Origin: Escherichia coli
GTDB taxonomy: Bacteria; Pseudomonadota; Gammaproteobacteria; Enterobacterales; Enterobacteriaceae
DNA length: 64,000 nt
Strand: one strand, 5' to 3'
NCBI RefSeq assembly: GCF_041248615.1
Contig: NZ_CP158426.1
Positions 22,291-37,421 of the stretch are shown in pieces. A model generated the notes under the pieces. The model worked only from the letters and a program-made list of their open reading frames with translations, did no database searches and was not told the origin of the DNA. Both the position numbers and the translations under genes were made by a program. Numbering within the stretch: the first letter of the stretch is position 1; each line of letters starts with the position of its first letter.

Positions 22291-23831
22291 AAATACGTTC
22301 GCAAGTCGGCATGGTGCTTAACCTCGATAAATGTATCGGCTGCCATACCTGTTCGGTGACCTGTAAAAACGTCTGGACCGGACGCGAAGGCATGGAGTAC
22401 GCATGGTTTAACAACGTCGAAACCAAACCGGGCATTGGTTATCCGAAAAACTGGGAAGATCAGGAAGAGTGGCAAGGCGGCTGGGTGCGTGATGTGAATG
22501 GCAAGATCCGCCCGCGTCTGGGCAGCAAGATGGGCGTAATAACCAAAATCTTCGCCAACCCGGTGGTGCCGCAGATTGATGATTACTACGAACCTTTCAC
22601 CTTCGACTACGAACATTTGCATAGCGCACCGGAAGGCAAACATATCCCTACTGCTCGCCCGCGTTCACTGATTGACGGCAAACGGATGGACAAAGTGATC
22701 TGGGGGCCAAACTGGGAAGAACTGCTGGGCGGCGAATTTGAAAAACGCGCCCGCGACCGCAACTTCGAGGCCATGCAAAAGGAGATGTACGGGCAGTTTG
22801 AAAACACCTTCATGATGTACCTGCCGCGCCTGTGCGAACACTGCCTCAATCCCAGCTGCGTGGCGACCTGCCCAAGCGGTGCTATCTACAAACGTGAAGA
22901 AGACGGCATTGTGCTGATTGATCAGGATAAATGCCGTGGCTGGCGTTTGTGCATTAGCGGTTGTCCGTACAAAAAAATCTACTTCAACTGGAAAAGCGGC
23001 AAGTCAGAAAAATGCATCTTCTGTTATCCGCGAATTGAGTCAGGCCAACCCACCGTATGCTCAGAAACCTGCGTGGGTCGCATCCGATATCTGGGCGTGC
23101 TGCTTTACGACGCTGACCGCATCGAGGAAGCGGCGAGCACCGAGCGCGAAGTTGACCTCTATGAACGCCAGTGCGAAGTATTCCTCGATCCACACGATCC
23201 CTCAGTGATCGAGGAAGCCCTGAAACAGGGTATTCCACAAAACGTGATTGAAGCTGCCCAGCGTTCGCCAGTCTACAAAATGGCGATGGACTGGAAACTG
23301 GCGCTACCGCTGCACCCTGAATATCGCACCCTGCCGATGGTCTGGTACGTTCCGCCGCTGTCACCGATTCAGTCTTACGCTGATGCGGGCGGTTTGCCGA
23401 AAAGCGAAGGCGTGCTCCCAGACATCGAGAGCCTGCGTATTCCTGTGCAATATCTCGCCAATATGTTAAGTGCCGGCGATACCGGTCCGGTACTGCGGGC
23501 GCTGAAACGGATGATGGCGATGCGCCACTATATGCGTTCACAAACCGTGGAAGGCGTTACCGATACCCGCGCCATTGACGAAGTAGGCCTGAGCGTCGCC
23601 CAGGTCGAAGAGATGTATCGCTACCTCGCCATTGCCAACTATGAAGACCGTTTTGTCATTCCAACCAGTCATCGGGAAATGGCGGGCGATGCCTTCGCAG
23701 AACGCAATGGCTGCGGTTTTACCTTTGGCGACGGTTGCCACGGCTCGGACAGCAAATTCAACCTGTTCAACAGTAGCCGTATCGATGCCATCAACATCAC
23801 CGAAGTGCGCGACAAAGCGGAGGGCGAATAA
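22287..23831 (+). CDS. narY: Respiratory nitrate reductase 2 beta subunit (Fe-S)
   Basis: 514 aa, multiple Cys clusters; 4-nt overlap with narZ stop. Confidence 0.93.
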   Translation: MKIRSQVGMVLNLDKCIGCHTCSVTCKNVWTGREGMEYAWFNNVETKPGIGYPKNWEDQEEWQGGWVRDVNGKIRPRLGSKMGVITKIFANPVVPQIDDYYEPFTFDYEHLHSAPEGKHIPTARPRSLIDGKRMDKVIWGPNWEELLGGEFEKRARDRNFEAMQKEMYGQFENTFMMYLPRLCEHCLNPSCVATCPSGAIYKREEDGIVLIDQDKCRGWRLCISGCPYKKIYFNWKSGKSEKCIFCYPRIESGQPTVCSETCVGRIRYLGVLLYDADRIEEAASTEREVDLYERQCEVFLDPHDPSVIEEALKQGIPQNVIEAAQRSPVYKMAMDWKLALPLHPEYRTLPMVWYVPPLSPIQSYADAGGLPKSEGVLPDIESLRIPVQYLANMLSAGDTGPVLRALKRMMAMRHYMRSQTVEGVTDTRAIDEVGLSVAQVEEMYRYLAIANYEDRFVIPTSHREMAGDAFAERNGCGFTFGDGCHGSDSKFNLFNSSRIDAINITEVRDKAEGE

Positions 23832-24526
23832 TGCAGATCCTCAAAGTGATCGGCCTGTTGATGGAGTATCCGGACGAGCTGTTATGGGAATGTAAGGAGG
23901 ACGCGCTGGCGTTGATCCGCCGCGACGCACCGATGCTTACGGATTTTACCCGCAACCTGCTTAACGCGCCGCTGCTGGATAAACAGGCCGAATGGTGCGA
24001 AGTGTTTGACCGTGGACGTACCACATCGCTGCTGCTGTTCGAACATGTTCATGCCGAGTCCCGCGATCGCGGCCAGGCAATGGTGGACCTGCTGGCGGAG
24101 TATGAAAAGGTCGGCCTGCAGTTGGATTGTCGAGAACTGCCCGATTATCTGCCGCTGTATCTGGAGTACTTAAGCGTACTGCCGGACGATCAGGCGAAAG
24201 AAGGCTTGCTCAACGTTGCGCCGATCCTCGCCCTGCTTGGCGGACGCTTAAAACAACGCGAGGCTCCGTGGTATTCGTTGTTTGACGCCCTGCTGCATCT
24301 GGCGGGAAGTACACTTTCAAGTGACAGTGTCACAAAACAAGTAAACAACGAGGAGCGCGATGACACCCGCCAGGCGCTTGATGCAGTGTGGGAAGAGGAG
24401 CAGGTGAAGTTTATTGAAGATAACGCCACGGCGTGTGACAGCTCGCCGCTTAATCAATATCAGCGACGCTTTAGCCAGGATGTCGCGCCGCAATATGTCG
24501 ACATCAGTGCGGGAGGTGGGAAATGA
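23831..24526 (+). CDS. narW: Nitrate reductase 2 delta subunit (assembly chaperone)
   Basis: 231 aa, NarJ-like; operon position. Confidence 0.9.
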
Positions 24527-25203
24527 TTCAGTATCTGAACGTCTTTTTTTATGATATCTACCCGTACATTTGTGCGACAGTGTTTTTCCTCGGCAGCTGG
24601 CTGCGCTACGACTACGGGCAGTATACCTGGCGCGCCTCCTCGAGTCAGATGCTCGATAAACGCGGGATGGTGATATGGTCGAATCTGTTCCATATCGGCA
24701 TTTTGGGGATTTTCTTCGGGCACCTGTTCGGCATGTTAACGCCGCACTGGATGTACGCGTGGTTTTTGCCAGTGGCAGCGAAACAACTAATGGCGATGGT
24801 GCTCGGCGGTATTTGCGGTGTGTTGACGTTGATTGGCGGCGCAGGACTGCTGTGGCGCAGGCTAACTAATCAGCGTGTGCGTGCCACTTCCACTACGCCG
24901 GATATTATCATCATGAGCATTTTGCTGATCCAGTGTCTGCTGGGGCTAAGTACCATACCGTTTTCAGCACAGTATCCTGATGGTAGCGAAATGATGAAGC
25001 TGGTGGGTTGGGCGCAAAGCATTGTCACTTTCCGTGGTGGATCGTCAGAGATGCTCAACGGCGTAGCGTTCGTCTTCCGCCTGCATCTGGTGTTGGGAAT
25101 GACCATCTTCCTGCTCTTCCCGTTCACCCGACTGGTGCATGTGTGGAGCGCGCCGTTTGAGTACTTTACTCGTCGGTATCAGATTGTGCGTTCGCGGCGA
25201 TAA
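24523..25203 (+). CDS. narV: Respiratory nitrate reductase 2 gamma subunit (cytochrome b)
   Basis: 226 aa, multi-TM; operon position. Confidence 0.9.
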
Positions 25204-27290: not shown

Positions 27291-27860
27291 GTGAGCCGAT
27301 TCATCCCTGTCGAATTACACCATGCCAGCCGTCTGTTAAATCATGGCCCAACTGTCTTGATCACCAGTTTCGATGAGCAATCCCAGCGGCGTAACATTAT
27401 GGCAGCCGCCTGGTCAATGCCGGTGGAGTTTGAACCGCCACGCGTGGCGATTGTGGTAGATAAATCGACATGGACCAGGGAGTTGATTGAACGTAATGGT
27501 AAGTTTGGCATCGTTATCCCGGGTGTTGCAGCAACTAACTGGACGTGGGCGGTGGGAAGTGTGTCGGGGCGTGATGAAGATAAGTTTAATTGCTATGGTA
27601 TTCCGGTTGTGAAAGGTCCGGTGCTTGGTTTGCCGCTGGTCGAGGAAAAATGTCTGGCGTGGATGGAGTGTCGCCTGCTACCTGCAACTTCCGCGCAAGA
27701 AAAATACGATACGCTATTTGGCGAAGTGGTATCTGCAGCGGCAGACGCACGAGTATTTGTCGAAGGCCGCTGGCAGTTTGATGATGACAAACTCAATACG
27801 TTGCATCATTTAGGTGCTGGCACGTTTGTTACCAGCGGCCAGCGTGTTACGGCAGGTTAA
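27291..27860 (+). CDS. yddH: Flavin reductase-like domain protein
   Basis: 189 aa from a GTG start; flavin reductase-like fold. Confidence 0.85.
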   Translation: MSRFIPVELHHASRLLNHGPTVLITSFDEQSQRRNIMAAAWSMPVEFEPPRVAIVVDKSTWTRELIERNGKFGIVIPGVAATNWTWAVGSVSGRDEDKFNCYGIPVVKGPVLGLPLVEEKCLAWMECRLLPATSAQEKYDTLFGEVVSAAADARVFVEGRWQFDDDKLNTLHHLGAGTFVTSGQRVTAG

Positions 27861-27863
27861 GCA

Positions 27864-28091
27864 TTACATGCTGTAACCGGGTTTCTTTATCAAAGCCTCC
27901 ATTTGGGGCTCGATTTCGGCATCCCAGATAGCTTGCCAAGATTCTGGTTGAATCTGCTGTAGAGAAATGCTTATCGAGCTATCTTTACTGTTCAGATGGC
28001 GAATAATAACGTCGGTAATATCTGCAGCGAGTGCTGCTTTTTGTTGTTCGTCCAGTTCACGCGGAAAACATTTAATGTCTATGTGCGGCAT
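27864..28091 (-). CDS. pptA: Tautomerase (4-oxalocrotonate tautomerase family)
   Basis: 75-aa product beginning [13 protein letters not shown] (Pro-1 after Met removal, the tautomerase hallmark). Confidence 0.85.
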
Positions 28092-28396
28092 GATTGTGCT
28101 CCTTTTGAAAGATGTCAGTAAAATTAACACACGTTGTGAATGTCGTGTGTCCGGTAATGCGTTTTTACGGCAATAATGCCTACTTGAAATTGTACATATT
28201 TGTACTACACACTTTTAAATAAAGCGCCAATGAAAACGTTAACTTGCAGAATATATTCTTCGCCAACATGCCATTAAGAAAACATCAAGTTCCCGGCTTG
28301 CCAATTGGTTAACGCCCATTATAGTTATTCTTGCCCTCACTAAAAATTTTCATCCGTAATTACCCCCAATAAAAATCCATTCTGGAGACGCTTAAG

Positions 28397-30373
28397 ATGC
28401 AGCTTAATCATATCGTTAAAAGTCTGCTAATAACGGGATTATTCACCACCAGTTCTTTACCTCTCCTCGCGGCGGAAGCTCCTAAAGACGCCACCGCAGC
28501 CACGCAACAAGCAAACAATTTACTCTACAACCAGTTGCCGTTTGCCGATAACACTGACTTTACTGATGCCCATAAAGGTTTTATTGCCCCTATCCCTCAA
28601 GACGTGATTAAGGGCGAACAAGGGAATGTTATCTGGGATCCACAACATTACGCTTTTATCAAAGAAGGCGATAAAGCCCCTGATACGGTGAATCCGAGTT
28701 TATGGCGTCAGGCGCAACTGATAAATATCAGCGGGTTATTCGAAGTAACTGAAGGTGTCTATCAGATTCGCAATCTCGATCTATCAAATATGACCATCAT
28801 TGAAGGCAAAGAGGGTATTACCGTCGTTGATCCCCTTGTTTCAGCAGAAACAGCCAAAGTGGGTATGGATCTCTATTACAAAAATCGCGGCAAAAAACCG
28901 GTAGTGGCGGTTATCTATACACACAGTCATGTCGATCACTACGGTGGTGTTCGTGGCGTAATTGATGAAGCTGACGTTAAATCAGGCAAAGTTAAAATCT
29001 ATGCGCCAGCCGGATTTTTGGAGGAAGCCGTTTCCGAAAACATCATGGCTGGCAATGTTATGAGCCGACGAGCCAGTTATATGTATGGCAACTTATTGAA
29101 ACCTGATGTTAAAGGCCAGGTGGGGGCTGGACTGGGAACGACTACTTCAGCAGGAACAGTCACGTTGATTGCTCCTACTAACTACATCACCAAAACCGGA
29201 CAAAAAGAAACTATTGACGGGTTGACTTATGATTTCCTGATGGCGCCAGGTTCTGAAGCGCCTTCTGAAATGCTGTGGTTTATTGAAGAAAAGAAACTGA
29301 TCGAAACCGCTGAAGATGTCACGCACACCCTTCATAACACCTATTCGCTGCGTGGGGCTAAAATTCGCCAACCGCTGCCGTGGTCAAAATATATTAATGA
29401 AGCTCTCAATTTGTGGGGTGATAAAGCCGAGATTATTCTCGCTCAACATCACTGGCCAACCTGGGGCAACGATAACGTGGTCAAACTGCTTAAAAGCCAG
29501 CGTGATTTGTATCGTTACATCAATGATCAAACTCTGCGCATGGCTAATCAAGGGATGACCCGTGATGAAATTGCCGCAAACTTTAAACTGCCCTCTTCAC
29601 TGGCTAACACCTGGGCGAATCGCGGCTATTACGGTTCGGTAAGTCATGACGTGAAAGCAACTTACGTGCTTTATCTCGGCTGGTTTGATGGTAACCCCGC
29701 GACGCTTGATGAACTGCCGCCAGAAGAAGGCGCAAAAAAATTCGTCGAGTATATGGGCGGTGCTGATGCCATTTTACAGAAAGCCAAACAGGATTATGAC
29801 CAGGGTAATTTCCGCTGGGTTGCCCAAGTTGTTAGTAAGGTGGTGTTTGCCGATCCAAACAACCAGGCAGCGAGAGATCTGGAAGCTGATGCGCTTGAGC
29901 AGTTAGGCTATCAGGCTGAATCTGGGCCGTGGCGTAATTTCTATCTCACTGGTGCACAGGAATTGCGTAATGGCGTACAAAAATTACCAACACCAAATAC
30001 TGCCAGCCCAGACACCGTGCGTGCGATGACGCCGGAGATGTTCTTTGATTATCTTGCCGTCCATATTAATGGTGAGAAAGCGGCAGATGCCAAAACCGTG
30101 TTGAATTTCGATTTTGGTGAAGATGGCGGCACCTATAAAGTGGAGCTTGAAAATGGTGTTCTCAATCATACCGCTGGTGTAGAGGCTTCGGATGCTGATG
30201 CCACTATCACTCTGTCTCGTGATGTATTGAACAAAATTGTACTGAAAGAAGAGACGCTGAAAGAAGCCACGGCCAAAGGAGATGTCAAAATTACTGGCAA
30301 TGAGGAAAAACTCAACGAGCTGTTAGGTTATATGGATAATTTTGAATTTTGGTTCAATATAGTGACACCATAA
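28397..30373 (+). CDS. Secreted alkyl/aryl-sulfatase, SdsA1/YjcS-like (metallo-beta-lactamase fold plus SCP2-like C-terminus)
   Basis: 658 aa; signal peptide MQLNHIVKSLLITGLFTTSSLPLLAAEA; MBL motif THSHVDHYGG; overall architecture of the alkyl sulfatase family; ATG with GGAGA RBS. Confidence 0.85.
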   Translation: MQLNHIVKSLLITGLFTTSSLPLLAAEAPKDATAATQQANNLLYNQLPFADNTDFTDAHKGFIAPIPQDVIKGEQGNVIWDPQHYAFIKEGDKAPDTVNPSLWRQAQLINISGLFEVTEGVYQIRNLDLSNMTIIEGKEGITVVDPLVSAETAKVGMDLYYKNRGKKPVVAVIYTHSHVDHYGGVRGVIDEADVKSGKVKIYAPAGFLEEAVSENIMAGNVMSRRASYMYGNLLKPDVKGQVGAGLGTTTSAGTVTLIAPTNYITKTGQKETIDGLTYDFLMAPGSEAPSEMLWFIEEKKLIETAEDVTHTLHNTYSLRGAKIRQPLPWSKYINEALNLWGDKAEIILAQHHWPTWGNDNVVKLLKSQRDLYRYINDQTLRMANQGMTRDEIAANFKLPSSLANTWANRGYYGSVSHDVKATYVLYLGWFDGNPATLDELPPEEGAKKFVEYMGGADAILQKAKQDYDQGNFRWVAQVVSKVVFADPNNQAARDLEADALEQLGYQAESGPWRNFYLTGAQELRNGVQKLPTPNTASPDTVRAMTPEMFFDYLAVHINGEKAADAKTVLNFDFGEDGGTYKVELENGVLNHTAGVEASDADATITLSRDVLNKIVLKEETLKEATAKGDVKITGNEEKLNELLGYMDNFEFWFNIVTP

Positions 30374-30385
30374 ATTTACTGCATA

Positions 30386-30410
30386 CCGGGCAGGTATCCT
30401 GCCCTTTTTT
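30386..30410 (+). terminator. Rho-independent terminator after the sulfatase gene
   Basis: Stem gggcagg/cctgccc with 3-nt loop followed by TTTTTT. Confidence 0.6.
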
Positions 30411-30419
30411 GGTTAAAAA

Positions 30420-31517
30420 ATGGCTGAACGAAGAAAAACGCATCACTCATGGAAAACCCGCCGCGATATGGTTATTCGCGGCATGACGATTAGTTTGCCA
30501 TGGTTTGCTTTTATCAATGTCAGTTTTGCATTGATAATTTTGCTGCGCCGTGTTCTGTTTAATGACCTTACTCCACCCTGGTTAAATGAAAAAAGCCTTA
30601 TACATTCTATTGATATATCTGCAACGGGTATTCTGCTGATTTGCAGTGGTTTACTACTCATCCCTCGGCAAAAAACATTACCTATCCAGGTGCTATTAGT
30701 TGCCCTGAGCCTGCTATGGTCATGGTGTAGTTATCACTTTATTGCGTACTGGACGCTGCAGTTTGCTTATCCACTATGTGTATTATTAATGCTTAGTGGC
30801 GTTGTCGCACTTTATTTCCATACCCCATCATTGCTCGCATTTGTCATTCCCTTATGGTTCACCACTCCAATAGCGAGTCTTATGCTTAATCAACAGATCA
30901 ATATTCATTTTGCTGTTGTATGGTGTATTTTTTCACTGGCGCTATATGGTGGGCGACTCATTTTGTTACGTTGGTTTGAAGAAGCATGGGTACAAAACAG
31001 TTATAACAACCAGTTAATTAATCGCCTTGATGCATTAGCACATCGTGATCCTTTAACTGGGATAGCAAACCGACGTGCAATGAACAGTATCTTACACGAC
31101 GCGATGGATAACGGCGGGTCATTTGCTCTTATTATGCTGGATGTCGATTTTTTTAAACGTTACAACGACACTTACGGGCATCCTGCTGGGGATCGTTGTC
31201 TAATACAAGTTGCCGACGCTCTACAGCGTTCAACTCGCCAGTCGGAGGATGTTGTTGTCCGTTATGGTGGCGAAGAGTTTGCCATCATACTTTTTAATGC
31301 AACATTGCCGGAAGCAGAGACGGTAGCAGCCAGAGTGAAGCAAGAACTTAAACTGGCAGCTATCCCACATCAGGCATCTGCTGTTAATGCATTTGTTACG
31401 GTTAGTCAGGGGATTACCTGTTCTGCTCCCGCAAAAACGGCTGAACAAATTATTTCAGATGCCGACGCTGCGTTATACCGGGCGAAAGAAAGTGGGCGAA
31501 ATCGATGGGCTTTATAA
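30420..31517 (+). CDS. Membrane-anchored diguanylate cyclase (GGDEF domain)
   Basis: N-terminal about 190 aa with multiple hydrophobic TM segments, C-terminal GGDEF domain with active-site motif RYGGEEF; start codon uncertain (ATG 30420 lies only 10 nt after a terminator; alternative in-frame ATGs at 30468 and 30483). Confidence 0.8.
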   Translation: MAERRKTHHSWKTRRDMVIRGMTISLPWFAFINVSFALIILLRRVLFNDLTPPWLNEKSLIHSIDISATGILLICSGLLLIPRQKTLPIQVLLVALSLLWSWCSYHFIAYWTLQFAYPLCVLLMLSGVVALYFHTPSLLAFVIPLWFTTPIASLMLNQQINIHFAVVWCIFSLALYGGRLILLRWFEEAWVQNSYNNQLINRLDALAHRDPLTGIANRRAMNSILHDAMDNGGSFALIMLDVDFFKRYNDTYGHPAGDRCLIQVADALQRSTRQSEDVVVRYGGEEFAIILFNATLPEAETVAARVKQELKLAAIPHQASAVNAFVTVSQGITCSAPAKTAEQIISDADAALYRAKESGRNRWAL

Positions 31518-31590
31518 GCATTAGGGGACTGGACAGATTACGTCTCTCCTCGCTTAACAAGGGCTGACGGAGGGTAATAATTGTCTATAG

Positions 31591-32142
31591 CTATCTTCTT
31601 AGCGATGTCTTTCTGGTATCACATTGGATCGGTGCAATTATTTTTCCTTTAATACCCATTATGTTAAGAAATTCAGAAACAGCTGTAATCTCATTGTTTT
31701 TTTCATTCGTCTTGATCTTCCAAGGAATCTGACTGTGCATTATTGAGAACACACTAATAACGTGAATCGCTCCCTTGCGACGACTCTTGTCATAAGAGTA
31801 CCGGAGCGTTTTTCCATCAATTGCAATGACGTCTTTATCATCTGAAGAATGGCAGTCAAGCATCCAGTTAATAAAGCACTCATGAAATTTTTCAGGACTG
31901 ATACAGGATACAACTCTGGCAATGGTATCGTGAACAGGAATACCATTATCAAAATCACCATATTGCTTCAAAAAATCGAGATGTGTTTCCCCAAAATCCT
32001 CTATATCTTCCCAGCCTTCTGCACCCGAAATAACGGCACAAATAGTCAACAGTAGAATATCCGATAATTTATGTTCCACTTTCCAGGCTTGTCTGTAATC
32101 GGGGATAATAGAAATATGTCCCATCAATTTTTTAAGTTCCAT
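31591..32142 (-). pseudogene. ISAs1-family (H-repeat) transposase, N-terminal fragment only (3'-truncated remnant)
   Basis: 183-aa ORF aligning to the N-terminal half of the second H-repeat transposase in this window (shared ...DYRQxWK...AEGWEDIxDFGExHL...GxPxHxTIARV...AIDGKxLR...); remainder absent; upstream end shares the ISAs1 terminal region with the other copy. Confidence 0.75.
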
Positions 32143-32727
32143 TTTGTTCTCCTTAATTATGTAAGGAGTATTTGATCATGTATACGCAATAAAAAACAGC
32201 TTCAGGTAATGAGGAATATCTCAATTGTTAAACATAAAATGCGAATTGTCTAGTACAAAAAAGCAGCGTTACGTGATCTTTCCGTGGATCGTCAAATTGT
32301 TCGAGAGAAAATACCAACATGATGGATTTTACTGTAAAAGTAATGTCGTAGTTTAAAAACTCATCATCCGGTAAAGCCTTGTGGGGCGTGGGCTTTCATA
32401 CTTTTACCCTGATGTCTGCTATACGCCGGACACCCTTTACGTAGCATTCGGAATTCACCCGTAAATTTATCACGGCGGTATCACGAAACCTCCGGTTCTG
32501 ATGCCGCTTAGGACTAACGACACGTCAACACAGGTTCGGGTTTATTCATTTCACTGTATCTCATATAATCTGAGCACTCCCCCTGCGCTCGCTACTATGA
32601 CTCTTTACCACAGCAACCGGGGTTGTTTGGGATCGGCTTTCAACAGCAGATCCCGGTGGCTATTGCAAGTAAGTCTACTTTCCACATCAGTGTTACTGAC
32701 ACAGAAAATAATGAGTTATGATCCTTG

Positions 32728-33213
32728 TCATATTTTTAATATAGCCCCATGAGCTATAGGATCAAAACCTTCTAACCATGAGGTGTTTTTATCGAATAAT
32801 GCACCTGTTATATTTATATCGCCATATCTATCACATAATAAATTAGCGCCACATAAGTCAGCACCAGAAAAATTTGAATCTTTAACGTCTGCATTGCAAA
32901 AGGTTGAATTAGTTAATATAGCACCCTCAAAGTTTGCACCTATTGACCTTGAATTACTAAAGTCACTTCCAGTGAAATCTGAGTTATTAAGAATAGCGTT
33001 CATCAGAGCCGCATTGCGAAAGACAGCATTTCTAGTTGATGTATGTTGAATCATTACATTTCTTAAATGGGAATTTTCAAATTTCGCCCCATCAAGACAA
33101 TAACCATTGAGGATGGCACGATGTAGATCCATCCCGCTAAAATCATATCCAGCAAGAGTGGTACTATCTATATCAAGAAATTTATTGGTTATTAAAAACG
33201 CGATTCTTATCAT
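32728..33213 (-). CDS. Pentapeptide-repeat protein, candidate Rhs immunity protein
   Basis: 161 aa with about 20 consecutive pentapeptide repeats (central L/F every fifth residue, e.g. [20 protein letters not shown]); AT-rich; start overlaps the Rhs stop codon (ATGA). Confidence 0.8.
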
Positions 33214-36200
33214 CTATTCCCCCAATCATCTAACTCCGGAAAAATTTGGCTAAACGGATATAGTGGTGCCGATAATGGACGCGTACCTGGCCGCTCAGGA
33301 GGAAGTTTATCACATAACAGACCCGCAACCATCCTGTGATTACCATTAACAATCACATTCCCATCCATATCAACCGGTGGTGCTCCACTACCATCTTCCA
33401 GCATTTGTACGTAGTGAGCTACTACGGGTACTGAGACTTTTTGTTGTACTGTCAACAAGGGACTGTTGGCCACAACCATCCTGATGTTTTCAGGTGTCGT
33501 AGGTAAACATTTAGTCTTCTCTTGACTAAAGGTATCATCCCACAATTTTGTTAAACCCATCACTGCCTGTTGTCTGTATTTATCCATGGGGTCAGCAATC
33601 AACCAAGATGGACCTGACTGCTCTATGGAATCTTCTCCGGAGAGACCCAACGGATCTATCTTAGTAGTTGGATTCAATGGATACTGATACAGGTTCCATG
33701 CACCTCTTAGCCCAATGGGATCCTGGGTGATATACCGCCCCTGCAACGGGTCATAGTACCGGTTGCGGTTATAGTACAGCCCCGACTCCTCATCATACTG
33801 CTGCCCCGGCAGACGGTACGGCTGTTGCAGTTGCTGCGCGCTGGTTTCGCCCAGCAGGTTTCCCCACTCGTCATACTCCCCCTGCCACGCCGTTTCCCCT
33901 TCCGGGCTGATGAGCGCCTGCGGCAGCCCCCGGTGGTCGCAGTGGTAAAGATGAAGTGTCCTCTCCGGGATGTATTCCGCCTCCATCTGGTTTTTCATCT
34001 GTTCCGCCGTCAGCCCGCACTGCTGAAGCCATGCCTCACTCTCCGCACTCACCGCACCCGCGCGCAGTTCCCGCTCCAGCCTCCCCAGCATCACCGACAG
34101 CTCCGCCGGTAGCGTCACCCCCGTGTCCTCCTGCAACACCTCCGCCAGACTCCGGTGCCGCGCCTTCGCCTGTTCACCATTCTCTGTTTCGATTCTGATG
34201 AGCGGCGTGAAGCTCCCCGGCTGGTATACCGTCTGGATACGCGTGGTGCCGGTCTGTACCGTCGTCAGCCTGTCACCGTCCCACCCGTACCAGGTCTCCT
34301 CCGGTTTACGCGACAGCGACATCCACCCCGTCAGGTCACGCTCCCGCCGCCACACCCGTTTCCCCGTCCGGCGGCCCAGCGGGTCATAGAGGTAGCGGCT
34401 CTCCACCTGTGGCTCGCCGTGCTGTATCCGCGTGTAGAACACCAGGCGGTGCTGGCTGTCGTAATGGTAGTGGTGCGTCCGCTCGTCGTGCATCCGTATC
34501 ACCCCTTCCGGGATACGGTCCGTCTTCTCCGCCAGCCTGCCGTATTCATCGTAGCGGTAGACATAGTGCGCATCTTCCGTGATGCGGTTATCCGGCCACG
34601 CCGTGAAGGTGCTGTCCGGGTGCAGTTCCGGGTCCGGCAGCCGGTTTCCTGCCGGGTCCGTCGCATACGGGATATCGATATCCAGGTTCGCCGCCGTGGT
34701 GTGAACGCCCGTCAGTCTTCCCGTGTCGCTGTAACGGTACTTCCGGCTCTCCTGCGGGCCGCTGATGCGCACCAGTTGCCCGTTATCGTTCCACGTATAC
34801 TCACGGTCAAGCTGCGGAAGGTTCAGGTGCCTGCTCCGGAGCTGCCCTGTGAGGGTGTACGCCGTGGCCTGTTCGTACCCCGCTGTACTGCCCGCCCCGC
34901 CGAAGCTGCGGGCCGTCTCACGGTGCAGCCGGTCCCGCGTGTACTCGACCAGCGGCGTTCCGCCCAGCTTCATCCCCGCAAGATAACCGCTGCCATACGT
35001 CAGCCACTCCACCGGCGGCAGACCGTCCGGCTCCTGACGGGTCGCCAGCCCCTGTTCGCTGTAGACGTGCCTCGTCTCATGCTCCCACAGCATCTCCCCC
35101 GTCTCCTGGTTCTCCACCGTCTGCCGTTCGCCCGTCAGGCGGCCTTTATCGTCATAGCCGTAGTGGACCGCCACACGGTGGCCTTCGCTCAGGTGGCTGA
35201 TTTCTGTCAGCCAGCCGTGGTCGTCATACTGCCACTGCTCCGCCGGGTCGCCGTTCACCGTCCGGTGCGTGATGCGCCCGGCGTCATCGTAGTACCACTG
35301 CGTGACCTGCCCCTCATCCTCGCTGCGGATGAGCTGCCCTGTGGCGCTGTACCGGTAACGCTGTGTCCTGCCGTCAAAGCCGCGCTGCTCCGTCAGCCTG
35401 TCCACCGGGTCATACCGGAACGTGGACTGGCTGCCGTTCTCGTTGGTCAGCACGGTGATGCGCCCGGCGGCGTCATACTCCATGCTGCGCGTCAGTCCGC
35501 CCTGCGTGGTGCTGACGGCCTTTCCCCACGCATCATACTGTGTCTCACTCCGGCTGCCGTTCGGGGCAATGATAGCGGTGAGGTCGCCTGCGGCGCTGTA
35601 CTCATAACGGGTTTCACGTCCCTGCGCATCCTTCTGACTGACCAGTTGACCACGCGGGTTATAACTGCTGTAAGTGCTGATGCCTTCCTCCCGGTGAACC
35701 GCCGTCCTCTGACCGTACCGGTCGTATTCATACCGCGTCGTGTACCCTGAACAGTCCGTAAATGCCTGAAGCTGACCGTACCGGTTTCGCGTTATTCTCC
35801 GCCTCACCCCGGTTCCGTCTTCCACCGCACAGGGCAGGCCACTGCGGGAAGAATCATAAAACCAGCGCGTAATGTTACCGTTGCGCGAGACCTCTTCCGC
35901 CAGCCTGCCCTGACGGTCATATTTCCGGCTGCGGCGCAGCCCGTCCGGGTACGTCACTGACGTCAGTTGCAACTGGTTGTTGTAACCATACCGTACCGTC
36001 CTGCCGTCCGGCAGTATCACTGAAGTCAGCTTTCCCGACGCCATATGCAGCCGGTACTCCGTCCGCCGTCCCGCCGCATCCGTCTGCGCCTTCAGCCTCC
36101 CCGCCTCATCATACTCGCTGCGGGTGATGCTCCCGTCCCCATACTCCTTCTTCACCACCCGCTTCAGGCCGCCCTCGCCCTCCGTGTACAGCACCTCCCG

Positions 36201-37421
36201 CCGGTTCAGGCTGTCCGTGATGGTCACGCGGTCCTGCCCGTACTCAAAGCGGTAGTCCAGCCCCTCCGGGTTGACCTGCTCCGTCACCCGACCGGTATCA
36301 TCATACCGGTAGCGGCTCTCCGGCCTCCCCGCATAATGGTGCGCCACCATCCGCCCGGCGTGCTCCGCATCATAAGTAAACCCGCGCACCTGCGTCCCGC
36401 TGCGGTCATACACCGCCCGCAGTTCTCCGCTGGCCGTGTACGTGTAGCGCGCCAGCGGCGCAGTCGGCAGTTCATCCGGGTATGCCGGGTCGTGTGTCAG
36501 CCATACCGCCTCCAGCCGGATACCGTTATCGGCACCGTACTCTGTACCGGTGGGCAGCGTGTCGGGGAAAAACTGAGAAGAGGAAACAGAACGGGGACTG
36601 GCCGGAGAAGATAAAGAAGACTCGCGCTGTTTACGGAAGGCTTTCGCCCGCTGCGCCTGTGTGGTCAGCGCCAGATGAAAACGGCGGCCCGCGCCGTCCG
36701 TCACCCCCGTCACCGCGCCCGCCGCTTCCCCCTCTGCCGCCCGGTGGAAGGCCAGCGTCCGCCCGAAGCCGTCCACCACGCCCGTCAGCACCCGGTATGC
36801 GGGCGGCTCCGGCGGCAGCACCTCGTCCGCCTCCGGCACCCGCTCCGGCCAGCCGAGTATCCACCACGGCCCCTGAAGGCTGTTTGTCGCCAGGTACACA
36901 TGCGGGCTTAAGCGGAGACTCTCCGGCAGCACCTGCCAGAGCGCGCTTAGCGGCTGCGAACTGTGCTGCTCCGCCACCCCGCCCCTTGCCAGCCAGAACG
37001 ACTCGCTGCGGCTGTAGCTTATCTCGCCGGGAAACAGCGGCTCAAAGTGAATGCTCCTGCCGCCACTGTCGTTGAGTATCAGTTCCCGCTCATGAACCTG
37101 TAAGCGGATATCGAAGGGCGCTTTCCAGCCGGGACCAAACACCCCCACCGGCGCGGGTGTCCTGGTCCGGTAGCTGCTGTAGGCGCGGGAAAGAATAAAC
37201 GGCAACGGGCCGGGCAGCGCAAGATCCGTCTCGCCCGGCAGCACCTTCGCACCCAGTAGCGGGTTCACCGGGTTACCCTTCTGCTCCTCCACCGGGCTGT
37301 TGGGACACACCGAGCAGGCCACTCCCGTCGGCGCACCTATCAGCACCCCCGCTGAACCCTGCACAATATCCAGTCCCTTGCGGGTCATATCGCCCTGTCG
37401 CGCCGCCGGTTTTCCGCTCAT
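33210..37421 (-). CDS. Full-length Rhs family protein (YD-repeat shell) with a variable C-terminal toxin domain
   Basis: 1403 aa; N-terminus [13 protein letters not shown]... and YD repeats closely resemble E. coli RhsA-type core; PxxxxDPxGL demarcation motif ([10 protein letters not shown]) followed by a 143-aa low-GC tip (33210-33641). Confidence 0.92.

Follow-up and report, generated by a model that had tools for sequence, protein, structure and literature searches.

Two adjacent genes between pptA and yncG in Escherichia coli, encoding a putative periplasmic alkyl sulfatase and the diguanylate cyclase DgcY, are very probably old chromosomal backbone that has mostly been lost through deletions adjacent to an insertion sequence. 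We found them in a window of 64,000 nt of E. coli contig NZ_CP158426.1. An earlier note, made from the letters of the window, had placed the two open reading frames at 28397..30373 and 30420..31517, and both positions were exact; the length of the frames and the full-length domain matches establish that the two genes are real and not chance. The note had also stated that K-12 lacks both genes, and this held. In blastn, homology of the window to K-12 MG1655 ends at 28180, after which K-12 continues with a full ISAs1 (ydcC), and together with the junction sequences this delimits a stretch without K-12 counterpart at 28181..31591.

The pair proved strain-variable, as had been expected: a presence/absence check found it in 438 of 5426 complete E. 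coli genomes (8%), with 92% lacking it, while the K-12-type junction occurred in 2375 of the 5426 (44%). A clean gene order of pptA, sulfatase, dgcY and yncG, containing neither Rhs nor ISAs1, is seen in E. coli WP2-W18-ESBL-08, SMS-3-5 and SCPM-O-B-8794. The pair is likewise syntenic in E. whittamii and in two further Escherichia species-level lineages.

The two genes and their products

In the window, the pair is flanked on one side by pptA (27864-28091, minus strand). The intergenic region between pptA and the sulfatase gene holds a promoter-like site, TTGCCA-16-TATAGT, at 28298..28325 on the plus strand, which matches the consensus at 10 of 12 positions and is a candidate sulfatase promoter by that match, although shuffled sequence gives as many such sites as this region. 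The sulfatase gene (28397..30373, plus strand) encodes 658 aa and begins with a predicted Sec signal peptide at 28397..28471, read from the sequence as MQLNHIVKSLLITGLFTTSSLPLLA/AEAP with a putative cleavage site at the slash. An intrinsic terminator follows at 30388..30410 (plus strand), composed of a 7-bp stem with six G-C pairs, a 3-nt loop and six T residues; its hairpin, GGGCAGG-TAT-CCTGCCC at 30388-30404, has a folding energy of -13.5 kcal/mol, in agreement with the strong terminator noted earlier. Next comes dgcY (30420..31517, plus strand), assigned by Pfam, AlphaFold and orthology as a MASE5 and GGDEF cyclase of 365 aa when read from the ATG at 30420. Beyond its stop codon lie a 74-nt segment (31518..31591), the first ~670 nt of an ISAs1 element of the H-repeat type (31592..32261, minus strand; 91.5% identical to K-12 ydcC) with a shortened transposase frame of 183 aa (31591-32142, minus strand), and further downstream an Rhs core (33210-37421, minus strand). 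An Rfam scan of 27800-32400 at E values up to 1 gave no match.

Pfam recognized three domains in the sulfatase, namely Lactamase_B, the dimerisation domain Alkyl_sulf_dimr (PF14863, E 1.3e-62, profile 1-139/139) and the SCP2-like C-terminal domain Alkyl_sulf_C (PF14864, E 3.1e-44, profile 1-125/125). The motif THSHVDHYGG occupies residues 175-184, and all seven zinc ligands are present (H176, H178, D180, H181, E287, E306 and H351), at the same offsets as H192, H194, D196, H197, E303, E322 and H367 of SdsAP (PMC5426288). Among structures in the PDB, the best match was 7TL5 (1192 bits), followed by 4NUR (PSdsA/SdsAP, 1036), 4PDX (YjcS, 702) and 2CFU (SdsA1, 636), and the crystallised homologues start aligning at residue 26-29 of the window protein. 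Judged by its sequence, the protein is a type III metallo-beta-lactamase-fold alkyl sulfatase of the SdsA1/SdsAP/YjcS family, the type to which it had been assigned before. The predicted signal peptide would make it a periplasmic enzyme, where the Sec-exported, two-zinc sulfatase would split primary alkyl sulfate esters such as SDS-like surfactants into fatty alcohol and sulfate.

The cyclase carries a MASE5 domain at residues 25-206 (PF17178, E 7.5e-44, profile 2-192/192) and a GGDEF domain at residues 207-362 (PF00990, E 1.9e-48, profile 1-161/161), as anticipated from its multi-TM N-terminus and RYGGEEF motif. The motif (residues 281-287) is intact and, as with the DxD and KxYND elements, does not vary across the family alignment. 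Hydropathy analysis gave six hydrophobic peaks ahead of the GGDEF domain, and the AlphaFold model (pLDDT 81.7) shows six helices, the last of which extends into the GGDEF domain. DgcY would thus be an inner-membrane enzyme with six tightly packed transmembrane helices and hardly any periplasmic loops, its last helix acting as a stalk to the cytoplasmic GGDEF domain. By analogy with other GGDEF enzymes it would make c-di-GMP as a dimer upon a change of state of the membrane domain, and the expected output would be raised c-di-GMP, with more matrix and biofilm and less motility. The membrane sensor had been called uncharacterised, which is correct in that MASE5 has no known signal. The RxxD product-inhibition site typically lies five residues before the active site (PMC4287979), whereas the cyclase reads R273-Q-S-E-D277-VVVRY-GGEEF, that is, RxxxD where RxxD is expected. 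The site is not obligatory, but R273 and D277 are both conserved without exception among 18 homologues, and feedback control may therefore depart from the textbook case. No equivalog above cut-off was found in NCBIfam for either the sulfatase or the cyclase.

Both the start codon and the promoter of dgcY had been called uncertain, and there are indeed two candidate ATGs. The NCBI pipeline, and hence RefSeq, starts the gene at ATG 30468, giving 349 aa. The upstream in-frame ATG, with a basic stretch and then a conserved W..R behind it, lies 16-23 codons 5' of an invariant Met17-Val18, and this ATG and its open frame are kept in Escherichia, Citrobacter, Lelliottia, Pseudenterobacter, Enterobacter and Pantoea. 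The ATG at 30420, giving 365 aa, thus has more support than the RefSeq start with its 349 aa. The ATG at 30420 is 15 nt past the terminator stem and 9 nt past the T run, and a similarly placed hairpin and T run occur at the Escherichia, Lelliottia, Pseudenterobacter and most Citrobacter loci, in the last case after yddH. Because the gap is only 9-15 nt, dgcY must be transcribed by read-through of the terminator or from a promoter within the 3' end of the sulfatase gene. A promoter scan yielded no convincing dgcY promoter, with the number of sites in the region not above shuffle expectation, and dgcY may therefore be weakly expressed.

Sulfatase–cyclase adjacency and upkeep of dgcY

An orthologue of the sulfatase gene adjoins a MASE5-GGDEF gene in three chromosomal settings: at pptA/yncG in Escherichia, at tynA/feaB in Lelliottia, Pseudenterobacter, Leclercia and E. 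hormaechei, and at uspF/ttcA in Salmonella, where the two genes are divergent. The sulfatase orthologues there are 85-88% identical, as against 47-49% to YjcS. The repeated adjacency suggests a functional link, and the pair might form a working unit in which DgcY senses the amphiphilic substrate of the sulfatase or its fatty-alcohol product in the membrane and raises c-di-GMP for protective aggregation against detergent-like alkyl sulfates. Apart from the recurrence at three loci, this idea draws on the divergent Salmonella genes, which have one regulatory region in common, and on MASE5 itself, which is nearly free of loops on the periplasmic side, so that any signal has to be perceived inside the membrane or via a partner. 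SDS is also known to induce SiaD-dependent aggregation in Pseudomonas aeruginosa. Against it, the sulfatase occurs without the cyclase in C. sedlakii and E. albertii, and the cyclase without the sulfatase in three Citrobacter species, E. cloacae DSM 26481, Hafnia paralvei and Pantoea agglomerans; the sulfatase gene and dgcY have a terminator between them, and common descent of a two-gene block could account for part of the adjacency. We consider the working unit unlikely on balance. It is likewise only a tentative proposal that MASE5 detects membrane-partitioning amphiphiles, whether alkyl sulfates themselves or the long-chain alcohols that their hydrolysis yields, in a detergent-to-c-di-GMP circuit. 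The adjacency at three loci nevertheless provides a concrete hypothesis for the MASE5 signal.

An alternative in which dgcY is barely expressed or degenerating, has no role today and is heading for loss in E. coli is improbable. The absence of the pair from 92% of complete genomes, a 328-aa form of dgcY cut by ISAs1, the split dgcY frame of C. koseri and the lack of room for a promoter between the terminator and the dgcY start would all fit such decay. However, the dgcY ORF is intact and near-invariant among carriers, with all family-invariant residues present, and orthologues of full length persist across genera with an identity of about 50%, which needs purifying selection. A literature search found no report of activity, expression or phenotype for DgcY, and a 2017 paper gave proven function only for DgcX, PdeY and PdeT.

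Ancestry of the pair and its loss

The slot between pptA and yncG is used in the same way by strain E69, and by E. albertii with the sulfatase alone. In Citrobacter the neighbourhood holds one or the other gene: C. sedlakii has the order yddH-sulfatase-yncG, whereas in three further species of the genus the order is yddH-dgcY-pptA-yncG. One of these three still shows a readable vestige of the sulfatase C-terminus 5' of dgcY (FEFCFTMVTP compared with FEFWFNIVTP), and a second retains similar DNA. Across the Escherichia and Citrobacter species compared, the pair and the core genes flanking it rise and fall together in nucleotide identity. A horizontally acquired genomic island would be missing from this place in relatives, would diverge out of step with its flanks and would have mobility genes within it or on either side; the pair instead shows synteny in relatives, divergence in step with the flanks and clean strains free of mobile elements.

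In E. coli itself, three strains have the identical ISAs1 end joined to the backbone at different places, corresponding to window positions 28180, 28466 and 31414, which links loss of the pair to the insertion sequence. Such a constant end at varying positions would be expected of adjacent deletions mediated by the IS, but also of independent insertions with later recombination between the copies. Among carriers, the exact dgcY|ISAs1 junction of the window occurs in 343 complete genomes and the clean dgcY|yncG junction in 87. The 74 nt after dgcY, together with its last two codons (AL for EK), stand where the clean strains join dgcY directly to yncG. The 74-nt segment is common to E. whittamii, Escherichia sp. 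E1V33 and a metagenome contig with a cyclase of 82% identity; aligned to the ISAs1 end, of which it might be a diverged copy, it scored 18, compared with a mean of 13.6 and a maximum of 20 for shuffled sequences, and this origin was rejected as not significant. The clean junction has no spacer at all and could itself be a secondary deletion, although in Citrobacter this order of genes is also seen, with 25 nt between them.

It is very unlikely that the pair is horizontally acquired, strain-specific cargo brought with or by the neighbouring ISAs1/Rhs region, as the earlier note had supposed: its presence in only 8% of complete E. coli genomes, its absence from K-12 and the ISAs1 and Rhs adjoining it in the window would suit such an origin, but SMS-3-5 and others carry it with no mobile element nearby, its place is shared with other Escherichia and, gene by gene, with Citrobacter, its divergence equals that of its flanks, a Citrobacter species retaining only dgcY keeps a piece of the sulfatase gene, and the IS end lies at nested positions inside the pair. 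We thus favour descent from the chromosomal backbone. The pair would sit between pptA and yncG in the Escherichia ancestor, an element of the ISAs1/Rhs type would then insert at the extreme 3' end of dgcY, and ISAs1-linked deletions of varied length would strip most lineages of E. coli of the pair, in part or entirely. This corrects the history of the pptA-yncG interval, in which the accessory part is the Rhs/ISAs1/T6SS insert and sulfatase-dgcY is eroded backbone.

Comparison with known sulfatases and cyclases

The sulfatase shares family and domain order with YjcS of K-12 (PDB 4PDX; RefSeq linear primary-alkylsulfatase). However, yjcS sits beside mdtNOP/als in K-12, and the different locus together with 49% identity to K-12 YjcS led us to reject orthology. 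As a YjcS paralogue, the window enzyme implies that carrier strains should hold two such sulfatases. SdsA1 of P. aeruginosa (2CFU) and SdsAP/PSdsA of Pseudomonas sp. S9 (4NUR) are SDS-hydrolysing type III alkyl sulfatases, which the window protein matches over its full length and all three domains. In contrast to them, it belongs to an enterobacterial orthologue group whose nearest structure in the PDB is 7TL5.

Comparison of the cyclase with the named strain-specific cyclases of E. coli identified it as DgcY. In SMS-3-5 the gene order is pptA-sulfatase-GGDEF-yncG, and the window proteins differ from their SMS-3-5 counterparts at 5 of 365 residues in the cyclase (360 identical) and at 10 of 658 in the sulfatase. 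According to the SalmoNet2 preprint (10.1101/2021.12.20.473597, citing Povolotsky & Hengge 2016), dgcY was described in SMS-3-5 and CE10 along with the alkyl sulfatase EcSMS35_1714. By sequence and by that account the window cyclase is DgcY, an already named accessory E. coli cyclase, and the pairing with the sulfatase had been noted in the literature before; the name rests on this secondary source and on the matching locus. The locus (pptA-sulfatase-cyclase) and the architecture are those of DgcY of SMS-3-5 and CE10, except that the window protein ends in AL and the SMS-3-5 type in EK, because the ISAs1-type junction replaces the direct junction with yncG. The annotation question is thereby settled, and DgcY belongs to the small number of E. 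coli c-di-GMP enzymes that are not part of the K-12 complement.

The Salmonella homologue, called YreP, is 48% identical to DgcY and lies at another locus with the sulfatase gene in divergent orientation. The sulfatase-DgcY pair is kept across six enterobacterial genera, and in Salmonella it has been reported chiefly from invasive serovars. DgcX of enteroaggregative E. coli O104:H4 (Richter et al. 2014) is likewise a strain-variable, membrane-anchored GGDEF protein with an intact active site (PMC4287979), but domain type and locus rule it out as the identity of the window cyclase. DgcX has a sensor domain of ~270 aa with eight helices, as in the MASE4 protein YcdT, a canonical RxxD, and a position adjoining lambdoid prophages at attB (PMC4287979), whereas the window cyclase combines a six-helix MASE5 domain of ~190 aa with RxxxD and a non-phage locus.

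The sulfatase and the cyclase

An alkyl sulfatase ORF of 658 aa (28397..30373, + strand) and a MASE5-GGDEF cyclase ORF of 365 aa (30420..31517, + strand), both supported by Pfam matches, lie where the earlier note had placed them, and the motifs it had read, THSHVDHYGG in the sulfatase and RYGGEEF in the cyclase, were found again. So was the terminator between the genes, a hairpin with a 7-bp G+C-rich stem and T6 (30388-30410, -13.5 kcal/mol), whose T run ends 9 nt upstream of ATG 30420. The pair is real and intact, and both genes are members of well-known families. It is preceded by narU-narZYWV-yddE-nhoA-yddH-pptA and followed by a partial ISAs1, a pentapeptide-repeat gene and an Rhs core; an Rfam search of the pair region gave no matches.

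The sulfatase matched Lactamase_B, Alkyl_sulf_dimr and Alkyl_sulf_C, each over its full length, and is by sequence a type III, metallo-beta-lactamase-fold alkyl sulfatase. Its best matches among solved structures were 7TL5 with 1192 bits, 4NUR (PSdsA/SdsAP) with 1036, 4PDX (E. coli YjcS) with 702 and 2CFU (SdsA1) with 636, and all seven zinc ligands that PMC5426288 gives for SdsAP are kept at the same offsets (H176, H178, D180, H181, E287, E306 and H351). Since its N-terminus reads like a Sec signal peptide and alignments to crystallised homologues begin at residue 26-29, the enzyme is probably periplasmic.

The cyclase comprises MASE5 (residues 25-206, E 7.5e-44) and GGDEF (207-362, E 1.9e-48) domains. 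Its hydropathy plot has six peaks, and an AlphaFold model (pLDDT 81.7) has six helices (14-41, 55-80, 86-111, 116-130, 135-157 and 162-207), the last continuous with the GGDEF domain. The loops between the membrane helices are very short, so a periplasmic ligand-binding domain is absent, and any signal would have to be read inside the membrane or via a partner protein. Every residue invariant across 18 homologues from several genera is kept, including the DxD, KxYND and GGEEF elements. RxxD normally sits five residues ahead of GGEEF (PMC4287979); at that position RxxxD (R273...D277 in the window protein) is invariant among these 18 family members, which makes canonical product inhibition doubtful.

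RefSeq starts the cyclase gene, here called dgcY, at ATG 30468 (349 aa). Six genera (Escherichia, Citrobacter, Lelliottia, Pseudenterobacter, Enterobacter and Pantoea) keep the frame open upstream of an invariant Met17-Val18, with an ATG 16-23 codons 5' of it and then basic residues and a conserved W..R. This pattern favours ATG 30420, and the protein would then begin with a short, positively charged tail in the cytoplasm ahead of its first membrane helix. The support for the longer start and the non-canonical RxxxD are additions of the present analysis. At most of the loci compared, the gene upstream ends in a terminator-like hairpin within about 15-35 nt of the dgcY ATG, and a promoter scan revealed no credible promoter between the two, suggesting that dgcY is expressed by read-through or from a promoter within the last part of that gene.

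Ancestry of the pair and the ISAs1 junctions

As the earlier note stated, K-12 lacks both genes: its homology to the window stops at 28180, where a complete ISAs1 (ydcC) follows. The pair is indeed strain-variable, at least 80% of window 28131-31600 being present in 438 of 5426 complete E. coli genomes (8%). The exact dgcY-ISAs1 junction of the window occurred in 343 of the 5426, a direct dgcY-yncG junction in 87, and the K-12-type junction of the pptA flank with ISAs1 in 2375 (44%).

The same note took the pair for probable cargo next to the ISAs1/Rhs region, a reading that has the direction of history wrong. Strains WP2-W18-ESBL-08, SMS-3-5 and SCPM-O-B-8794 carry pptA-sulfatase-dgcY-yncG-ansP with neither Rhs nor IS. 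Both genes occupy the same slot in E. whittamii and in strain E69 (79% cyclase identity in the latter); E. albertii has the sulfatase there, then an Rhs element, C. sedlakii has yddH-sulfatase-yncG, three other Citrobacter species have yddH-dgcY-pptA-yncG, and a fourth contig has yddH-dgcY-yncG. In Citrobacter sp. Awk 4 (8900-8990 of its contig), where the sulfatase is absent, about 35-45 nt of the sulfatase 3' end remain directly 5' of dgcY, reading FEFCFTMVTP against FEFWFNIVTP at the sulfatase C-terminus and followed by a terminator-like hairpin; similar DNA occurs in Citrobacter sp. R56 (5810-5860). Finally, from species to species the nucleotide identity of the pair keeps step with that of its flanks: in E. 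albertii flanks 83-85% and sulfatase 86%, in C. sedlakii 77-83% and 80%, and in E69 87-89% and 87%, with the cyclase at 80.5%. These four lines (clean strains, shared slot, remnant and divergence) agree in pointing to backbone, not cargo, and the ancestral status of the pair is new here. The variable material is the segment between dgcY and yncG, Rhs in the window and T6SS PAAR/VgrG genes elsewhere.

The junction of the backbone with one and the same ISAs1 end (CAGGGCAAGATTACGAAAGCCCG...) lies at 28180 in K-12, 28466 in IMT16316 and 31414 in L1PEag1, the last leaving a cyclase of 328 aa. Nested end points in the backbone beside a constant IS end are what IS-mediated adjacent deletion should produce; separate insertion events and later recombination among IS copies would look no different. 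The ISAs1-linked deletion series, with its genome counts, is likewise added here. At 31510-31591, the last two dgcY codons (AL, not EK) and the next 74 nt are unlike the clean strains and are common to E. whittamii, Escherichia sp. E1V33 and a metagenome contig (cyclase 82% identical). The 74 nt, whose likeness to the ISAs1 end was not significant, are followed by the initial ~670 nt of an ISAs1.

Several further features of the region were recorded. In the window (32728-37421) the dgcY-yncG slot is taken up by an Rhs core of 1403 aa and, downstream of it, a pentapeptide-repeat protein; in other strains it holds T6SS PAAR/VgrG genes with small ORFs in L1PEag1 (12707-17531) and IMT16316 (9859-14156). 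In TUM14771, a strain 100% identical to the window, yncG (23261-23867; about window 39391-39997) is annotated as a pseudogene with a frameshift and an internal stop; the clean strains have an intact copy. WP2-W18-ESBL-08 carries IS621 (IS110-family) between yddE and nhoA (4923-5903). The window narV (24523-25203) is identical to K-12 at 226/226 residues and to the SMS-3-5 allele (NCBI: narI) at 204/226, with a similar figure (89%) for WP2-W18-ESBL-08. This gene has two deep allele classes in E. coli, which may have arisen by gene conversion or recombination.

Recurrence of the pair in other genera

An orthologue of the window sulfatase (85-88% identical to it, 47-49% to YjcS) adjoins a MASE5-GGDEF gene (48-52%) in two further chromosomal settings, in tandem between tynA and feaB in Lelliottia, Pseudenterobacter, Leclercia and Enterobacter hormaechei, and divergently, 285 nt apart, between uspF and ttcA in Salmonella enterica. 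The Salmonella pair was noted before, mainly in typhoidal and invasive serovars (SalmoNet2 preprint, 10.1101/2021.12.20.473597). Our comparison adds a third locus for this conserved pair. A functional link, in which alkyl sulfates or the alcohols released from them would be the signal for DgcY, is rather unlikely. As a precedent, SDS-induced aggregation in Pseudomonas is reportedly SiaD-dependent. The sulfatase occurs without the cyclase in C. sedlakii and E. albertii, and the cyclase without the sulfatase in three Citrobacter species, E. cloacae DSM 26481, Hafnia paralvei and Pantoea agglomerans, which counts against an obligatory partnership.

In C. koseri NCTC10786, the dgcY homologue (7216-8302) gives two separate matches, 7216-7356 and 7358-8302, that are not in the same frame; a frameshift in a pseudogene or an error in the sequence is the probable cause. 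The stink-bug symbiont Pantoea sp. Eser has a fragmented copy of this sulfatase (12881-14852), some 3 kb away from the MASE5 cyclase and on the other strand, as if the pair were decaying in this symbiont.

Relation to named proteins

The SalmoNet2 preprint (10.1101/2021.12.20.473597), citing Povolotsky & Hengge 2016, equates yreP with dgcY in E. coli, and states that yreP/dgcY was first described in strains SMS-3-5 and CE10, together with the alkyl sulfatase EcSMS35_1714. SMS-3-5 has the order pptA, alkyl sulfatase, GGDEF protein, yncG, and differs from the window at 5/365 cyclase and 10/658 sulfatase residues. The evidence, a name taken from a secondary source together with a matching locus, points to DgcY; according to that source, both the name and the pairing with the sulfatase are already in the literature. 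A 2017 paper lists proven function for DgcX, PdeY and PdeT only, and the literature we covered yielded no functional data on DgcY. The earlier note had proposed comparison with named strain-specific cyclases, and by locus and residue differences this selects DgcY, not DgcX. DgcX was rejected: its sensor domain of ~270 aa, common to YcdT, has eight helices and its gene adjoins lambdoid prophages at attB (PMC4287979), whereas the window cyclase has a six-helix MASE5 domain. Likewise, the sulfatase is not YjcS of K-12, to which it is just 49% identical and whose locus lies elsewhere, but a second paralogue.
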